Source: a virus. From it: a stretch of DNA of 64,000 nucleotides. The DNA is taken from positions 1 to 64,000 of IMG/VR virus record IMGVR_UViG_3300006931_000001, one strand, 5' to 3'. Of this stretch, positions 1-39,083 are shown one piece after another (position 1 is the stretch's first letter; every line of letters begins with the position of its first letter). The notes beneath the pieces were generated by a model. The model was not told the DNA's origin. It did not search any database and saw nothing but the letters and a program-made list of their open reading frames with translations. Both the position numbers and the translations under genes were made by a program.

Positions 1-109
1 CGCAGTGGTGAGTTGTGTGTCCCTTCTCTAGTACGCACTGGTCTTTTCGTCCATTGTGCTCCCAGACTTCTTGACAGAGATTAGTTCTCTTAGCTTTATT
101 TATCTGCAT
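1..109 (-). CDS. MxIxKA-leader family small Cys/His protein, partial (runs off window edge)
   Basis: Not in ORF track. Manual translation from ATG at 109: MQINKAKRTNLCQEVWEHNGRKDQCVLEKGHTTHHC...; overlaps the end of 96..353. Confidence 0.75.
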   Translation of the reverse strand, partial: MQINKAKRTNLCQEVWEHNGRKDQCVLEKGHTTHHC

Positions 110-353
110 TTTTCCATATCATATGGAATCCGTCAGTGCAGAGTCCATCATGGTAGAGCGGCTTGACACATCGCTGATTTTCATGCACAGATGTACAGAG
201 TGGATTTAGCCATAATTCTGTTGCACCTTTTTCTGGTAAATTAACCTCATGCATTCCTCTATGATAGAGTGGCTTAGTGCAGAATGTATTAATGAGTCTA
301 GGATGAGGTTTCAGACACAGTAAAATTACACGTCGTGCTTTCCTTATTTCCAT
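96..353 (-). CDS. MxIxKA-leader family protein, two Cys/His modules (second degenerate)
   Basis: MEIRKARRV leader; CTKPLYHRGMH and CVKPLYHDGLC. Confidence 0.8.
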   Translation of the reverse strand: MEIRKARRVILLCLKPHPRLINTFCTKPLYHRGMHEVNLPEKGATELWLNPLCTSVHENQRCVKPLYHDGLCTDGFHMIWKNADK

Positions 354-616
354 GTGTGGATAAATCCTGTTCGATGATCAGATTTGCCTACATGCGCGCC
401 TTCGTGATTTTGAGGTTTGATGCACTCTATCACAGCCATCGTTTCTGTGCATGTCAGTGCTTGGCATAAAGGATTAGCCCAGATATAGACTTGACCAGCT
501 ACGGTAACTTGGTGTGCGTCTCTATGATATAGAGATTTGGTGCAGTACAAATGCTGCATAAGTGGATGTTGCTTTCCACACCCTTGAACTACGCGACGTG
601 CTTTCTTTATTTCCAT
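344..616 (-). CDS. MxIxKA-leader family protein, two Cys/His modules
   Basis: Start moved to MEIKKARRV (ATG 616), overlapping the upstream stop; CTKSLYHRDAH and CIKPQNHEGAH. Confidence 0.8.
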   Translation of the reverse strand: MEIKKARRVVQGCGKQHPLMQHLYCTKSLYHRDAHQVTVAGQVYIWANPLCQALTCTETMAVIECIKPQNHEGAHVGKSDHRTGFIHTWK

Positions 617-762
617 GTGACTGTCTTGGTCTGTCTGATGCGCCAACTGCGTTCCATACCCACGTGAGAGCCGTCATGATTTTCAGGACGGATGCATTTT
701 ATCACACCTCTATATGCTGCCTGGCATTGATTAATTAGGCGTCGTGCTTTTACGATTTTCAC
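607..762 (-). CDS. MxIxKA-leader family protein, 51 aa (below ORF-track cutoff)
   Basis: GTG start; MKIVKARRLINQCQAAYRGVIKCIRPENHDGSHVGMERSWRIRQTKTVTWK; fills the gap between neighbours with overlaps on both sides. Confidence 0.8.
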   Translation of the reverse strand: MKIVKARRLINQCQAAYRGVIKCIRPENHDGSHVGMERSWRIRQTKTVTWK

Positions 763-971
763 TCCTTACTCCAAAAATCATCTCGCCAGTGATGAGATCC
801 GTAATGGCCTCTATGTCGCACACATGGTCCAAATTCTTCGTGAGTAGATGAACACTTATCACGAGTGTATTCTTCTCTCAATGAATTTATAAGTTGTTCG
901 ACATGTGATCTGCTTAATGTGGTTGATATTTTTGTAGCAATAATTACACGACGTGCTTTTACGATTTTCAC
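759..971 (-). CDS. MxIxKA-leader family protein
   Basis: MKIVKARRV leader; C...CVRHRGHYGSH; ends FWSKE. Confidence 0.8.
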   Translation of the reverse strand: MKIVKARRVIIATKISTTLSRSHVEQLINSLREEYTRDKCSSTHEEFGPCVRHRGHYGSHHWRDDFWSKE

Positions 972-1153
972 TTCTTACTCCAAAATTCGTGGAGTCCATC
1001 GTGGTCAGCTGACAGCACGCAACATCCCAGCTCTGCATGAAAAACGAGACACATGGATGCTGATGGTCTGATGCTGTGTTTTATTGCAACACGCACTTGC
1101 TCTACATTTGTTGGTGTCACTGGAATTACTCGATATGCCTTTACGATTTTCAT
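968..1153 (-). CDS. MxIxKA-leader family protein
   Basis: MKIVKAYRV leader; C...CVLSADHDGLH; ends FWSKK. Confidence 0.8.
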   Translation of the reverse strand: MKIVKAYRVIPVTPTNVEQVRVAIKHSIRPSASMCLVFHAELGCCVLSADHDGLHEFWSKK

Positions 1154-1422
1154 TATTCCTCACTGGCTTGATAGCCTGGTACAAATATGTCATGTCCATC
1201 TAGCCACTGGACAATTCTGTCAGTACCATCTACATGCCAAGCGACGTGATATCCTGCGTGATTAGCGCTGCGTGTGCAATACACTCCTTGCTCCGGGTGT
1301 GTCTCTGGACAGCCGCTAGGTCCGTATATTCTATCTGATTGGTGTAATTTTTGTAAAACTGATGTCGCAAATTGTAAAACTGATGTCGCAAATGTGACTT
1401 TTCGTGCTTTCTTGATTTGCAT
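1153..1422 (-). CDS. MxIxKA-leader family protein
   Basis: MQIKKARKV leader; C...CTRSANHAGYH. Confidence 0.8.
   Translation of the reverse strand: MQIKKARKVTFATSVLQFATSVLQKLHQSDRIYGPSGCPETHPEQGVYCTRSANHAGYHVAWHVDGTDRIVQWLDGHDIFVPGYQASEE
1351..1392. repeat. 21-bp perfect tandem duplication (FATSVLQ x2)
   Basis: ttgtaaaactgatgtcgcaaa twice, in frame, just after the leader. Confidence 0.9.
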
Positions 1423-1506
1423 GGAAGCTCCACCTGGAACGTGGTCTCAGACACACGCCAGGAAATCATAGGCTCGCTTCTGCGCGCGTTTTGAGGCTCG
1501 ACCGTG

Positions 1507-2112
1507 TCAGAGTGCCGCGTACGCCTGTGCAATCACCTCAGCGCGCGAGAGCTCGCACGTACATTTTGTGCACCGCAGTTTCATGCGAGTAGTCGCAGGA
1601 TGCACTTGTACAGCGTGACCACAAGAAATGCAGAGAAATCCTAATTCCAGAGTTTTCTCATTTGCTGGATTTCTGCGTATCGCATTTAATACTTTTGCAT
1701 TGTAGTTATTATATTGCTGAACAGCATTAATTTTGTACTTTATATGCTCTGGACCGGAATCTAGAACAAGGTGCAGTAATTGGCTCTGAAGCAACGTGCA
1801 AAATCCATGTTCCTCAGGCAGTGTAGAGGAACAGCCTACGCACGCTACGTCATACGGATGCATTAGAGCATATTCATCATTGGTGTGTGCACCTAATATA
1901 TGGCCACAGTGCTCACACTCCAAATTCTTTATGACCTTGGAATCTGTGTGTAGGAGCTCATGCTCGCTAGATAGATAATCGTGTATATTGGCTCTGCGTT
2001 CATATATTGATCTCAGCATAAGAGCATTGCTCTTGCGTAGTTCTATTAGTGCAGAGCCATGCACACGGGACACTAGCTTACGTGGTACGCGTCTCGCCTT
2101 GCGTATTTCCAT
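1507..2112 (-). CDS. MxIxKA-leader family protein with two CxxCGH...H...CxxC Zn-binding motifs
   Basis: Start moved to MEIRKARRV (ATG 2112); CEHCGHILGAH/CVGC and CISCGHAVQVH/CTKC. Confidence 0.75.
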   Translation of the reverse strand: MEIRKARRVPRKLVSRVHGSALIELRKSNALMLRSIYERRANIHDYLSSEHELLHTDSKVIKNLECEHCGHILGAHTNDEYALMHPYDVACVGCSSTLPEEHGFCTLLQSQLLHLVLDSGPEHIKYKINAVQQYNNYNAKVLNAIRRNPANEKTLELGFLCISCGHAVQVHPATTRMKLRCTKCTCELSRAEVIAQAYAAL

Positions 2113-2242
2113 ATGAGTTCTCTGTGCATCGTTGACAACTATCATGTGGGCATATGCCACGCATGAGCATCGGGTGCTTTATCGCATATGTGAGTCATCA
2201 CTCTATACTGCGCGGGACCATTCCGGGTGGTGCTACTTCCTC

Positions 2243-2330
2243 CATTACCTGAGGGTAGATTTTTTATTACTCATTAACTGAGGGTTATTTTTTTTATTTT
2301 TATCCATTACCTAGGGTTGATTTTTATTTT
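2243..2330. promoter_or_regulatory. Three imperfect direct repeats CATTA(C/A)CT(G)AGGGT, each followed by a T-tract
   Basis: Copies start at 2243, 2272 and 2305 in the non-coding gap upstream of the leader array. Confidence 0.5.
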
Positions 2331-2351
2331 GTATACCCAGACTTCTTTTTT

Positions 2352-3297: not shown

Positions 3298-3658
3298 TGA
3301 TTATCTCCGGAAATTCGTAACGAGTCCACCACTGATGCTCGTCATAGAATTTTAATACTGCACGTGCTGTCGCGTATTTGGAGAACGTTTGATGTATCTT
3401 TGGAGTCACTCTGTCGTGCAGATACACACGAATGATTACAGGTATCAGATTTAATTCTGATGCAGCAGTGATGCGGTGTGAGCCTTCAAGTGCGTACCAA
3501 GCACTTTCTTGCTTTCTCCAATATGCGTGGATTTGAGGAGTGCCACGCTCACGCATCTCCTTGATTATCGCTTTGAGGTATGAAGGATTTGGTTTGTGCG
3601 GAGCGAAGATAATCATACTCGCTCGTGAGTATTCTTCCAAGGATCGTGTGACGGCCAC
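3287..3658 (-). CDS. Stand-alone ParB/Srx-like N-terminal domain protein
   Basis: YALEGSHRITAASELN resembles the ParB/Srx G-x-H-R motif. Confidence 0.6.
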   Translation of the reverse strand: MAVTRSLEEYSRASMIIFAPHKPNPSYLKAIIKEMRERGTPQIHAYWRKQESAWYALEGSHRITAASELNLIPVIIRVYLHDRVTPKIHQTFSKYATARAVLKFYDEHQWWTRYEFPEIISDK

Positions 3659-4053
3659 TCTGTAGGCAGTCTGTATTTTTTCAGAAGCTCTTCACACTGC
3701 TTACTGAAAACTCCATCTCGCTCATATTCGATTGGAACGGAGCCGATGGTCTTTCGCTCTTCCACTGGTGTGAGCATGAGCAGTAAATCCATGGCTCGTG
3801 TTGCCAGCTGTTTTCTACGGTGGTCCGGATGGATGAACACGCCTACGCCGTAGCGCACGTAGCCGCGACACATACAGGCCCATCCCACGATTGTTTTGTG
3901 GTGGTAGACCGCCACGACTCGAAGCCTCTGAGGCTCGCGTAGCCAATGCCAGAACTCCGAGAATCCAACTGGATTGGTCAGAGGTCGCAATTGTTTCGCG
4001 CGATATCTGGTGACTTTGGTGAAATGTCGGAAGCTATACTCATCAGTACGCAT
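3613..4053 (-). CDS. GNAT family acetyltransferase
   Basis: VFIHPDHRRKQLATRAM resembles GNAT motif A. Confidence 0.7.
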   Translation of the reverse strand: MRTDEYSFRHFTKVTRYRAKQLRPLTNPVGFSEFWHWLREPQRLRVVAVYHHKTIVGWACMCRGYVRYGVGVFIHPDHRRKQLATRAMDLLLMLTPVEERKTIGSVPIEYERDGVFSKQCEELLKKYRLPTEWPSHDPWKNTHERV

Positions 4054-18607: not shown

Positions 18608-18778
18608 ATGAGCACTGATATTCGCAAATCTTATATGATTTGTAATTTCTGTAATCACAGATATCTCGGAAATGTTAAGTGTCCATACTGTGGAGAATTT
18701 GGAGGTAAATTCCAAAGTGATGGAGATGACATCACCAAAAAAACATTTGAAGAGCCAGATCTAAAGAAAGGTTTTTGA
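18608..18778 (+). CDS. Zn-ribbon protein, 56 aa (not in ORF track)
   Basis: AAGGAG RBS; MSTDIRKSYMICNFCNHRYLGNVKCPYCG...DLKKGF. Confidence 0.65.
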   Translation: MSTDIRKSYMICNFCNHRYLGNVKCPYCGEFGGKFQSDGDDITKKTFEEPDLKKGF

Positions 18779-35330: not shown

Positions 35331-36023
35331 ATGCGCAGTGATGTTGAAAGACTCCTAGAAGAAGACAGATTCGAAGTTTTCGTTCCCGACACTTTCGAGA
35401 TTCTCGAAAAGGCTGGAAACGAAGATATCGAAGAGACGCGACCTATTGGGGGCTTTTGTTCGACTGAGCATCTTGATCGGCAAGAAGAGGTGGTTGTAGC
35501 CAAAGGTTTAATGTTTGATGACTTCATTAACTTTGGTTACTTTAATGACAACCATCGACAAGATACATCAGCTGTTTTAGGTTATCCTAGAGTAGTTAAA
35601 TTAATTGATAGCAAGTGGTGGACAGAAGGAAACCTAATTAAAGGTTATACTCCAGCTGATAAGGTCTGGGAGTTAGCTAAAGCACTAAAGAAAAGCCGAG
35701 CGCCGCGACGTTTAGGTTTTTCCATCGAAGGTAAAGTGCTCGCTCGTGATGAGAATACACGGCGAATTCTTCGTGCTGCTGTTCGTAACGTAGCGATTAC
35801 AAATTGTCCTGTGAACACAGCATGTACATGGGATATTTTAGCCAAAGCATTCGGTTCGGAAAATGCGGTAGTTGCAGCAAGTAAAGCTGAAAAAGACGTC
35901 GAAATGATTAGAAATGATATGCTTGACGCAAATGCTGCGTATAGCAGAATCAGAAAAATCAGACCTCAGTATAGTAAATCAACTTGTCAACGCATCGTAC
36001 AATTGGCGATGCGGAATTTTTAA
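35331..36023 (+). CDS. Prohead maturation protease
   Basis: GFCSTEHLDRQEE, NDNH, GFSIEG, VAITNCPVN. Confidence 0.88.
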   Translation: MRSDVERLLEEDRFEVFVPDTFEILEKAGNEDIEETRPIGGFCSTEHLDRQEEVVVAKGLMFDDFINFGYFNDNHRQDTSAVLGYPRVVKLIDSKWWTEGNLIKGYTPADKVWELAKALKKSRAPRRLGFSIEGKVLARDENTRRILRAAVRNVAITNCPVNTACTWDILAKAFGSENAVVAASKAEKDVEMIRNDMLDANAAYSRIRKIRPQYSKSTCQRIVQLAMRNF

Positions 36024-36777: not shown

Positions 36778-37650
36778 ATGTCGAAGAAAGATAAGTCTCT
36801 GATCAAGGAAAGTAATCTGATCAAGGCATTGAATGATCTTGAAGCGCTCGCTAAAGGTGACGCTATGGAAAATCAAGATCCAGAGGGAGGTCTAGCAACC
36901 GAAGGTAAGCCTCTTTCTGCGATGGCTCCACGCGGGAAAGATCGCAGCATGACCAAGAAAAGCAAAACACGCGCTGCATCGTCAAGTAGCGCTATGTCAT
37001 CGTCTGTGGAAAAAGCAGAAGCTGATGATGACAGTGCTAGCAGCGAAGACATGAGTGGAGATGATGAGAGCTCTGATGAGGATATGAGCTCTGATGATGA
37101 GAGCTCTGATGATAATATGAGCAAATCCTTTCGCCAGCGCGCGGAAGAAAATGAGGAAATGGCAAAAGGCTTGCTTGTTTCGCCATTCCTCGAAGCAATG
37201 ACAGATCAGATGAACGAGGCGTTGTCCGATTTGTCGAAGAGTTTTCAGAAGAGTCTAGATAACCGTTTTAATGCGCAGAATGAATTTAACACTCGCATCG
37301 CTAAAGGTATTGTTCTTATTGGTCGGACAATGAGCGCCATTGTTCCGTTAGTCAAGGAACAGTCCGAGATGATTAAATCATTTGGAAATTCTCCAAATGT
37401 AGCGCAACGAAAGAGTATTCTCAATAAGTCGGAAATTGCAGAGCCGCATCGTACAGGAGATGACGGTGATAGTGATGGTGCGCCAAAACTCAGTCGTAAC
37501 GACATGCAGGATTGGCTGGTGGAAAAATCAACCAAGGGTGAGATTCCTGTAGCTATTGTTACGACTTGGGAGACGTCAGGACACGCTCTTAGCTCACTTC
37601 CGTTGCAAATCCGCAAGGCCATGATGAATGACCTCGCGAAAGCGCAATAA
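36778..37650 (+). CDS. Scaffolding protein
   Basis: Directly upstream of MCP; acidic D/E/S repeats; about 13 K|A/S/G motifs. Confidence 0.7.
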   Translation: MSKKDKSLIKESNLIKALNDLEALAKGDAMENQDPEGGLATEGKPLSAMAPRGKDRSMTKKSKTRAASSSSAMSSSVEKAEADDDSASSEDMSGDDESSDEDMSSDDESSDDNMSKSFRQRAEENEEMAKGLLVSPFLEAMTDQMNEALSDLSKSFQKSLDNRFNAQNEFNTRIAKGIVLIGRTMSAIVPLVKEQSEMIKSFGNSPNVAQRKSILNKSEIAEPHRTGDDGDSDGAPKLSRNDMQDWLVEKSTKGEIPVAIVTTWETSGHALSSLPLQIRKAMMNDLAKAQ

Positions 37651-37679: not shown

Positions 37680-39083
37680 ATGCAAATGGTTACGATGGCT
37701 GATTATGAAGGTTATAATGGCTTCTCTGGCGGATTTGGCAACGCAGGGCAGAACGATGTTGAAGAGCTGAACAAGGCTCTTACGAGCAATTACCAATCGC
37801 CGCGTACTGATGGCTCGGCTGCATTACGCGTCGAATCTTTGGAGGCAACGCTTCGTGTTCTGACGTTTAATGCGAACCATGTGAAGCTCTGGAGAGTTAT
37901 TCCTAAGCTTCCGGCATACAGTACGAGTGAAGAATACAATGTCCAGACCTCATATGGTCAGGATAACGGTATGTTCACCTTGGACGGTGAATTACCGCAG
38001 ACGCAAGATGCATCGTACGAGCGGCGCGTTTCGCTCGTGAAGTTTATCGGCTGCACGAAGGAAGTTAGTTATACTACTACACTTGTGAAGCCGGCACATG
38101 GTAATGTGATTGCTCTAGAAACGAGCAATGCAGCAACGTGGATTATGGAGCGCACCGAGCGTGCACTATTTGGTGCACGCCAGGATGTGATTCCGCAAGC
38201 CTGGGATGGTCTGGATCAGCAAATTCAGAACGATCCTATCGCGTCTGTGCAGAATATTATCGATCTTCGTGGCAGTGTTCTCACGCCAGAGAAGATCGAG
38301 GAAGGCGCGAATATCATCGTAGAGGCGTATGGTGTTCCTACCGATTTCTACGCAGCGCCTCGAGCAATCTCCGATCTTGGAAAGCAATATTATCCGAAGG
38401 AGCGTATTAATTTACCTGCACCAGTTAACGGTCGAGTTGGCGTTACGGTGTCTGAGGTTAATACTACGGCTGGTGTGCTGCCGCTTAACTCAGATGTGTT
38501 TTTGCGGTCCGGTGGTAATAACGGACGCAAGAAAGCGCCAGCTTCGCAGACCTCCAACCGTGCGCCGTCTGCTCCAACCGTTACAGGTGCAGTTGGCGGC
38601 TCTGGTTCGCAATTTGCGGCTGCAGATGTTGGCACCTATCAGTACAAGGTTTCTGCCATTAACCGATTTGGCGAATCCACGTCTGGTCAGTTGTCTGGCG
38701 GTGCAGCGGTTGCTTCTGCAGGGCAGAACGTGACGTTAACCATCACGGATGGTGGCGGCGGTGATCCTGCGACTGGTTACCGTGTGTATCGCTCCTTTGT
38801 TGGTGGCGCTGTCGGTACCGAGCAATGGATTGCTGATGTGCCACGCGCCACCACTGGTACAACGGCATATGTTGATGCGAACCAGTATCTGCCGAACACG
38901 TCTCGCGGATATATGTTTCAGGTGAATACACAGTCGTTGGCCTTCAAGCAATTGGCGCCGATGCTTAAGGTGCCTCTTGCGACGGTTGCTATCAGCATTC
39001 GTTGGTCGCAGGTTCTTTTTGGTGTGCCTCAGATGTACGCACCACAGAAGAATGTTATTTATATTAACTGCGCCGATGACTGA
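37680..39083 (+). CDS. Major capsid protein
   Basis: ELNKAL...DGSAALRVESLEATL; FN3-like insert YQYKVSAINRFGES; QLAPMLKVPLA: SPO1/Twort-like MCP. Confidence 0.92.
   Translation: MQMVTMADYEGYNGFSGGFGNAGQNDVEELNKALTSNYQSPRTDGSAALRVESLEATLRVLTFNANHVKLWRVIPKLPAYSTSEEYNVQTSYGQDNGMFTLDGELPQTQDASYERRVSLVKFIGCTKEVSYTTTLVKPAHGNVIALETSNAATWIMERTERALFGARQDVIPQAWDGLDQQIQNDPIASVQNIIDLRGSVLTPEKIEEGANIIVEAYGVPTDFYAAPRAISDLGKQYYPKERINLPAPVNGRVGVTVSEVNTTAGVLPLNSDVFLRSGGNNGRKKAPASQTSNRAPSAPTVTGAVGGSGSQFAAADVGTYQYKVSAINRFGESTSGQLSGGAAVASAGQNVTLTITDGGGGDPATGYRVYRSFVGGAVGTEQWIADVPRATTGTTAYVDANQYLPNTSRGYMFQVNTQSLAFKQLAPMLKVPLATVAISIRWSQVLFGVPQMYAPQKNVIYINCADD

Follow-up and report, generated by a model that had tools for sequence, protein, structure and literature searches.

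A recurrent N-terminal peptide on unrelated proteins of an uncultured soil phage, possibly a capsid address signal

The question raised by the locus described here is why otherwise unrelated proteins of one phage should begin with the same few residues. The window analysed spans positions 1-64000 of the virus record IMGVR_UViG_3300006931_000001 (IMG/VR; 117,394 bp), which represents an uncultured soil phage of about 117 kb and 43% GC, referred to as G000. At positions 2-2112 of the window, eight abutting or overlapping minus-strand genes (the array) all start with M-x-I-x-K-A-[R/K/Y]-[R/K]. The distribution of this N-terminal peptide (the tag, or leader), its resemblance to a putative head-protease site, and the functions that it might serve are considered in turn.

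The N-terminal tag in the array and across the genome

The initial annotation listed eight minus-strand genes with these N-termini. All eight open reading frames (ORFs) were present, and their starts were confirmed in the DNA (Table 1). An ORF threshold of 60 residues would miss gene 4 and the truncated gene 1, and gene 3 has an alternative upstream TTG at 646 besides the ATG from which the leader results. The array had also been thought to run on past the window edge. The ends of the record share a 120-bp terminal repeat that joins them, so the record is a circularly permuted assembly and gene 1 carries on at the opposite record end. After gene 1 there are about 250 bp of non-coding DNA and then converging plus-strand genes; therefore, the array ends there, with exactly eight genes and no continuation.

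Six-frame translation of the genome gave I-x-K-A-[RKY]-[RK] at 11 places, ten of them directly behind a start codon. The pattern M-x-I-x-K-[AG]-[KRY]-[RK] fitted 12 of 4053 candidate starts, none in the reversed sequence and none in each of 20 shuffles. In total, 14 gene starts were tagged, ten in the M-x-I-x-K-A form and four in the M-x-I-x-K-G form, and about 0.02 of each form would be expected by chance from position-specific residue frequencies in the other 165 predicted proteins. A chance origin of the tag starts is excluded. Scanned through the full genome, the leader proved to be wider than the array, with six further carriers beyond the eight genes: four proteins of 64, 100, 110 and 187 residues, a gp32-type single-stranded DNA-binding protein (SSB), and the large terminase. 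One short N-terminal peptide is common to otherwise unrelated proteins of one phage, and the isoelectric point was 8.6-11 in 10 of 11 tag proteins examined.

Similarity over the whole protein was found among seven array proteins (all except gene 8), and was missing for gene 8 and the six carriers outside the array. The leader had been described as sitting on just two cargo types; there are more than two, since the carriers outside the array are unrelated too. The orthologues of the SSB and the terminase in relatives are without the M-K-I-x-K-G start. The start position of the terminase is uncertain, because initiation at an internal GTG lying 11 codons further downstream would give the length of two orthologues. 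The SSB has an extremely acidic tail, about 100 residues long, with the basic sequence KRKKSKKHRRH at its end.

The codons used at K5, A6, R7 and R8 of the tag resembled genome-wide usage, CGN/AGA exchange included, which speaks for selection on the peptide. As judged from the sequences, the evidence supports the view that M-x-I-x-K-[A/G](-R-R-V) acts as a portable tag that unrelated cargoes carry and that is constrained at the amino-acid level.

A putative head-protease site and a second tag among relatives

The capsid protein of G000 was homologous to SPO1 Gp6.1 and the phi812 capsid protein, and was 36-38% identical to those of Bacillus phages. It had 411 relatives at E <= 1e-30, the nearest being 88, 84 and 81% identical, and an IMG/VR single-protein scan with it returned no relatives. 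The genome comparisons covered 16 IMG/VR relatives, whole or partial, with capsid proteins about 40-60% identical to that of G000.

The motif hydrophobic-x-K-[A/S/G] was counted in each protein, with expected numbers taken from shuffles. In the portal-to-capsid block, the ratio of observed to expected sites reached 2.05, compared with 0.89 for tail genes and 1.00 for replication genes. In addition to the proteins in Table 1, the MuF-like protein had 8 sites against 1.3 expected, and a 404-residue head-module protein had 10 against 2.3. The scaffolds of six relatives were equally motif-rich. In 51 head-module proteins from 17 genomes, the residue after hydrophobic-x-K was S at 3.4 times, A at 2.2 times and G at 1.7 times expectation, and all other residues were at 0.9 times or less (R at 0.49 times). 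In the same set, K was the most enriched residue before [A/S/G]. Furthermore, K32-A33 of the capsid protein was invariant in 28 of 28 relatives and aligned with L-N-K-A of SPO1 Gp6.1, and K27 of the protease was invariant in 8 of 8 relatives in the context hydrophobic-x-K-[A/S/G]. Within the first 40 residues, a site occurred in 8 of 16 head-module proteins versus 23 of 160 others, 11 of the latter being tag genes. With the tag genes removed, the figures were 8/16 versus 12/149 (Fisher p = 8e-5). The result was similar in the relative G002 (9/20 versus 25/171).

Because the motif is enriched in head proteins and invariant in the capsid protein and the protease, we infer that hydrophobic-x-K↓[S/A/G] (arrow, predicted cut) is the head-protease cleavage site across the clade. 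The tag residues I-x-K-[A/G], at positions 3-6, fit this putative prohead-protease motif, and E-I-R-K-A of the tag resembles Q-I-R-K-A of the scaffold and E-L-N-K-A of the capsid protein. The recurrence of an I-x-K-A core in head proteins, remarked on in the initial annotation, was upheld statistically, as a likely head-protease site. In Twort-like phages, the capsid protein is probably shortened at its N-terminus by about 23 residues, with the cut behind a lysine. No published cleavage site for SPO1/Twort-type capsid proteins was found, the accessible parts of PMC5923470 and PMC3185647 included. The proposed code is of use by itself for annotating the mature ends of head proteins clade-wide, and could predict those of the portal, the MuF-like protein and the 1340- and 1655-residue head-module proteins (window 18608-39083 and relatives).

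Table 1. Array genes, tag carriers outside the array, and head-module proteins with the putative protease motif. Positions refer to the window unless marked "genome".
Feature	Position	Strand	Gene start	Remarks
Gene 1, MQINKAKRT	2..109	-	109	Cut by record start; complete gene 59 residues, genome 117204-117383; last gene of the array
Gene 2, MEIRKARRV	96..353	-	353	85 residues; two Cys/His modules
Gene 3, MEIKKARRV	344..616	-	616	90 residues from ATG at 616; two Cys/His modules
Gene 4, MKIVKARRL	607..762	-	762	51 residues; GTG start; one Cys/His module
Gene 5, MKIVKARRV	759..971	-	971	70 residues; GTG start; one Cys/His module
Gene 6, MKIVKAYRV	968..1153	-	1153	61 residues; one Cys/His module
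Gene 7, MQIKKARKV	1153..1422	-	1422	89 residues; one Cys/His module
Gene 8, MEIRKARRV	1507..2112	-	2112	201 residues from ATG at 2112; different cargo with CxxC zinc-ribbon-like pairs
Tag carrier MQIKKARRI	genome 111763	+		64 residues; M-x-I-x-K-A form, outside array
Tag carrier MEIKKAKRL	genome 115030	+		110 residues; M-x-I-x-K-A form, outside array
Tag carrier	genome 112281			187 residues; M-x-I-x-K-G form
Tag carrier	genome 100476			100 residues; M-x-I-x-K-G form
gp32-type SSB (phrog_1192)	genome 91196-92224 (L004:7196-8224)			M-K-I-x-K-G start
Large terminase (phrog_675)	genome 107059			M-K-I-x-K-G start
Small CxxC...CxxC protein in head module, starts MSTDIRKS	18608..18778	+		Tag-like I-R-K↓S, 2-residue offset; zinc-ribbon type
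Head maturation protease (phrog_1028)	35331..36023	+		6 hydrophobic-x-K-[A/S/G] sites vs 0.8 expected
Scaffold protein	36778..37650	+		13 hydrophobic-x-K-[A/S/G] sites vs 1.7 expected, including Q-I-R-K-A-M near C-terminus
Major capsid protein	37680..39083	+		L-N-K32-A33 site

An unbiased search for recurrent N-termini in the 17 genomes found a tag only in G000 and G002; a third cluster, in G016, consisted of three full-length paralogues. The genome of G002 (L105-L110) has 118,719 bp and 49% GC, and its capsid protein is 56% identical to that of G000. Its tag reads MT[L/I]xx[L/I]WKRR and heads no fewer than 12 small ORFans that are unrelated to one another, with weaker xxSVW[K/Q]R forms on two more proteins; many of the tagged proteins have CxxC pairs. 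The tag genes of G002 are scattered: they occur beyond the 3' side of the terminase gene, among replication genes, and three genes ahead of the portal gene. Their tag codons vary widely, with seven different codons at one hydrophobic position, which indicates that the G002 tag is a signal at the peptide level. The slot syntenic to the MSTDIRKS head-module gene holds a G002-tagged gene in G002, and the SSB and terminase of G002 are without the tag of that phage.

The G000-type tag was absent in five relatives when ATG starts were searched, and in ten more when ATG and GTG starts were searched for the RR form only. A pattern scan of IMG/VR with the G000 tag gave 13 matches, each the only one on its contig; of the ten matches read, most were internal to a conserved large ORF. 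The same scan with the G002 tag gave 83 stretches, and only the record of G002 itself had more than one. Each tag was confined to its own genome in IMG/VR. A scan of metagenome contigs with the G000 tag gave at least 119 stretches, and the 80 stretches listed were all single matches. A phyletic search for partner genes present only in G000 and G002 yielded three candidates, none of them receptor- or enzyme-like: a 744-residue tail-region protein, a 134-residue protein and the C-terminal part of the 187-residue protein, none being informative. As a separate observation, the neck/adaptor protein of G007 (L135:3934-5205) and its orthologues in G008 and G009, all three being distant relatives, have an extra N-terminal domain that starts with [E/K]-L-x-K-[A/G]-R-R-x-R-D. 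These proteins match PDB 8q01 ('adaptor/neck protein') via the G000 homologue. The start is close to the G000 tag, and the likeness may be a coincidence (estimated at roughly 4%).

Possible capsid loading and competing explanations

The reading ranked first is that M-x-I-x-K-[A/G](-R-R-V) is a portable N-terminal address peptide, similar to the capsid-targeting sequence (CTS) of T4, which would be clipped by the head protease and would load its carriers into the capsid. We hold this reading tentatively, as plausible though short of probable. It was placed first because the tag fits the protease motif, T4 provides a precedent, the carriers are basic, and the MSTDIRKS head-module gene and its slot in G002 point in the same direction. 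In such a scheme, the tag would present the recognition site of the head protease, hydrophobic-x-K↓small residue, at the extreme N-terminus; the carrier would enter the assembling prohead together with the core of scaffold and protease, lose its first five residues by a cut after K5, and remain in the head to enter the next cell with the DNA. The tag would then be bound or cut, tagged proteins would be present in virions, and the putative zinc-binding cargoes would have a role after entry. Moreover, G002 independently shows the same architecture, with its own tag on at least a dozen unrelated small proteins.

Short terminal peptides that dock unrelated cargo inside an HK97-fold shell are also found in encapsulins, where they are usually C-terminal and uncut and where the shells are cellular compartments, not virions. 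The G000 tag as proposed would resemble these cargo-loading peptides in being a short terminal peptide on unrelated cargoes. The closest precedent is T4. As described in the accessible parts of PMC9026906 and PMC3012670, certain T4 proteins have N-terminal propeptides, 10-19 residues long (7 in Alt), that direct them to the scaffolding core and also contain the protease site; these propeptides head a highly diverse, fast-changing set of proteins. The parts of PMC9026906 consulted further describe the T4 internal proteins as small and basic, the scaffold as cut into many pieces, the virion proteins as bearing N-terminal propeptides, and the protease as having a site near its own N-terminus. The analogy to T4 internal proteins drawn in the initial annotation was apt in this respect. 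Like the CTS of IPI, IPII, IPIII and Alt, the G000 tag is a short N-terminal peptide on diverse, fast-evolving, small and mostly basic proteins, and it would contain the site of the prohead protease, as would the capsid protein, the scaffold and the protease; the scaffold of G000, like that of T4, appears riddled with such sites. In contrast to T4, the capsid protein of G000 is of the SPO1/Twort type, an unrelated lineage, so the two phages are not homologues in this respect. The inferred G000 site has Lys instead of Glu before the cut, the predicted propeptide has only five residues, the tag genes lie in an early-looking block, and the SSB and the terminase bear the tag as well. For G000, packaging, cleavage, injection and any anti-defence activity are predictions.

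Several results weigh against capsid loading. The SSB and the large terminase of G000 are both tagged, and neither is expected inside the prohead, so not every carrier is plausibly a head protein. The array lies within a minus-strand ORFan block, on the strand opposite to the structural genes, and this block looks early. A tag is missing from 15 of the 17 clade genomes that share the head genes. Internal protease-motif sites are not depleted in the cargoes (3 observed versus 2.0 expected), and a basic nonapeptide would contain the motif by chance in roughly a few per cent of cases, which is not negligible. Finally, the G002 tag reads L-W-K-R, and R after K is the combination found at only about half of expectation in head proteins. 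This misfit to the code suggests that the G002 tag is uncut or that the two tags do different things.

A wider version of capsid loading can be formulated, and it seems to us possible but doubtful. A SPO1-related soil clade with a Lys-cutting protease would use lineage-specific, substrate-like tickets of 5-9 residues (M-x-I-x-K-A-R-R in G000, MTLxxLWKRR in G002) to load an expandable library of zinc-binding proteins, maybe including the SSB, for co-injection, as an independent counterpart of the T4 CTS. T4 already shows the principle; the novelty, if true, would lie in the SPO1-related instance, the Lys-specific code, the very short predicted propeptide and the lineage-specific tags. In a narrow literature search, T4-type and giant phages were the only ones for which such a tag was found described. 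Were the tag a capsid ticket, the T4 principle would have a second example, of independent origin, in a phage group unrelated to T4; any small protein could become injected cargo by gaining one short peptide; and the carriers would name candidate first-strike zinc-binding proteins of an uncultured soil phage. The tag would also offer a ready-made handle for packaging foreign proteins.

The alternative that survives best, unlikely as we judge it, is a nucleic-acid- or partner-docking arm, that is, a basic peptide that would raise affinity for DNA or RNA or plug DNA-handling proteins into a hub, with no role in the capsid. The sole carriers of recognisable function, the SSB and the terminase, bind DNA; most cargoes in G000 and G002 have Cys/His or CxxC zinc-binding patterns; K-(A)-R-R ends both tags; and the N-termini of SSB orthologues are basic in general. 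However, a simple basic arm would leave the strict Ile3 and the hydrophobic MTLxxLW part of the G002 tag unexplained, the SSB and terminase of G002 do not carry its tag, and no hub-encoding gene was found among those common to the two tag-bearing phages only.

A signal for degradation or chaperone handling is quite unlikely. By this explanation, a host AAA+ protease or chaperone would recognise the N-terminus, and proteins serving host takeover would thereby be kept short-lived. The consensus forms of N-terminal ClpX degrons may loosely resemble the tag. Both tags place hydrophobic and basic residues at the extreme N-terminus, and their difference between phages of 43% and 49% GC would fit different hosts. 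N-terminal ClpX degron classes exist, as the accessible part of PMC12723719 reports. Nevertheless, the likeness to the degron consensus is a loose one, a degron would have no obvious purpose on the SSB and the terminase, and the match to the head-protease motif would be left unexplained. Should a degron or a docking arm prove correct, the tag would still be a case of unusual genome-wide N-terminal tagging that reaches the SSB and the terminase, with a differently worded counterpart in a relative.

An equally low probability is given to a start cassette, in which the translation-initiation region and the first six to nine codons would have spread by duplication or recombination and the peptide would have little function. 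The DNA at the array junctions is near-identical (e.g. GGAGTAAGRAGTGAAAATCGTAAAAGCACG), and codons are common within sub-groups, all five I-V-K starts sharing ATC-GT[A/C]. The codon ATT was used for Ile3 in only 1 of 14 cases versus a fraction of 0.51 genome-wide. Codon 2 was NAN in 14 of 14 genes and NAR in 13, although the residue was E, Q, K or H, and a Shine-Dalgarno sequence was missing in about half of the tagged genes. Against this, the variation of the codons for K, A and R is that expected from genome usage, the seven codons at one position of the G002 tag indicate a peptide-level signal, and a homologue search found no RegA-type translational repressor. Our own reading of this mixed codon signal is that the copies spread by duplication or recombination of the start segment, with the peptide kept afterwards. 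The argument that synonymous variation of the leader points to selection on the peptide therefore holds in part: the variation is real, and part of it does no more than tell apart sub-groups whose codons are alike through common descent.

A recognition leader for a modifying enzyme, as in ribosomally synthesised and post-translationally modified peptides (RiPPs), is very improbable: the strand block of the array does contain a GNAT acetyltransferase gene, and a weak, sub-threshold peptidase C39-like gene is found among the G002 tag genes, but G000 and G002 have no such enzyme in common, the former being G000-only and the latter also in the tag-less G006, and the tag is far shorter than usual RiPP leaders on carriers that reach 201 to 600 residues.

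Two further candidates were rejected. A twin-arginine translocation signal peptide is not consistent with the absence of a regular hydrophobic stretch of 12 or more residues after RR. Mimicry of an SSB peptide was discarded, the SSB of G002 being without the tag of that phage.

Cargo modules and neighbouring features

The seven mutually similar array proteins contain one or two copies of a C...C-x5-H-x-G-x-H...W module (the Cys/His module), which is missing from gene 8 and from the carriers of 64, 100, 110 and 187 residues. When 1.84 billion representatives were searched with a profile built from the seven proteins, 54 proteins matched at E <= 0.001, of which 6 were the window's own and 48 non-self. 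The non-self proteins matched profile positions 26 onward only, often in 2-9 stretches. Since none matched the first 25 positions, none of the 48 has the leader. Examples of these proteins showed tandem C...C...GH.G.H...W units, so that repeat proteins elsewhere are like the seven array cargoes in their module, often with 2-9 copies, and differ from them in lacking the leader. No Pfam family was found in ten module-bearing non-self proteins scanned, and the only ESM Atlas matches of gene 7 were unnamed clusters from phages and actinobacteria. By these sequence searches, the Cys/His module is widespread but undescribed, and never occurs with the leader outside G000.

Searches of the eight array proteins against PHROGs and Pfam gave nothing above threshold. 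The homologue searches with gene 8 and one paralogue-profile search returned only the window's own proteins, and an IMG/VR single-protein scan with gene 8 found no relatives. An AlphaFold2 model of gene 3, built on a 7-row alignment, was unusable, with a mean predicted local distance difference test score of 52. Inside gene 7, a perfect 21-nt tandem duplication (window 1340-1390) encodes FATSVLQ twice.

The GNAT acetyltransferase gene (PF00583, 32 bits, above the cut-off) occupies window 3613-4053 on the minus strand, 1.5 kb upstream of the array and within its ORFan block; it was not found in G001, G002 or G006. The C39-like N-terminus in G002 belongs to a small protein at L110:17585-18010 and scored 19.3 bits against a cut-off of 22; the match in G006 was below the family cut-off as well.

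Promoter and terminator scans gave results at chance level only, no shared promoter motif was seen in 21 intergenic regions, and a blastn search of bases 1-2400 against phage records gave no match. Contigs of two sequencing runs matched the window, with no useful variation of the tag seen in them; none of run X1 matched, and no RNA run holding the sequence was listed. Bases 1-2899 were identical in a contig of run X2, which then continued into unlike sequence, and position 2899 is a mosaic boundary just upstream of the strand block of the array. In run X3, a 252-nt contig covered 663-915 with one deletion. Upstream of gene 8 in minus-strand orientation, window 2220-2335 holds three direct repeats of about 30 nt with the core CCCT-N-AGGTAATGG. 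Each repeat is a small hairpin between A-runs, found nowhere else in the genome, and one of them looks terminator-like on the plus strand.

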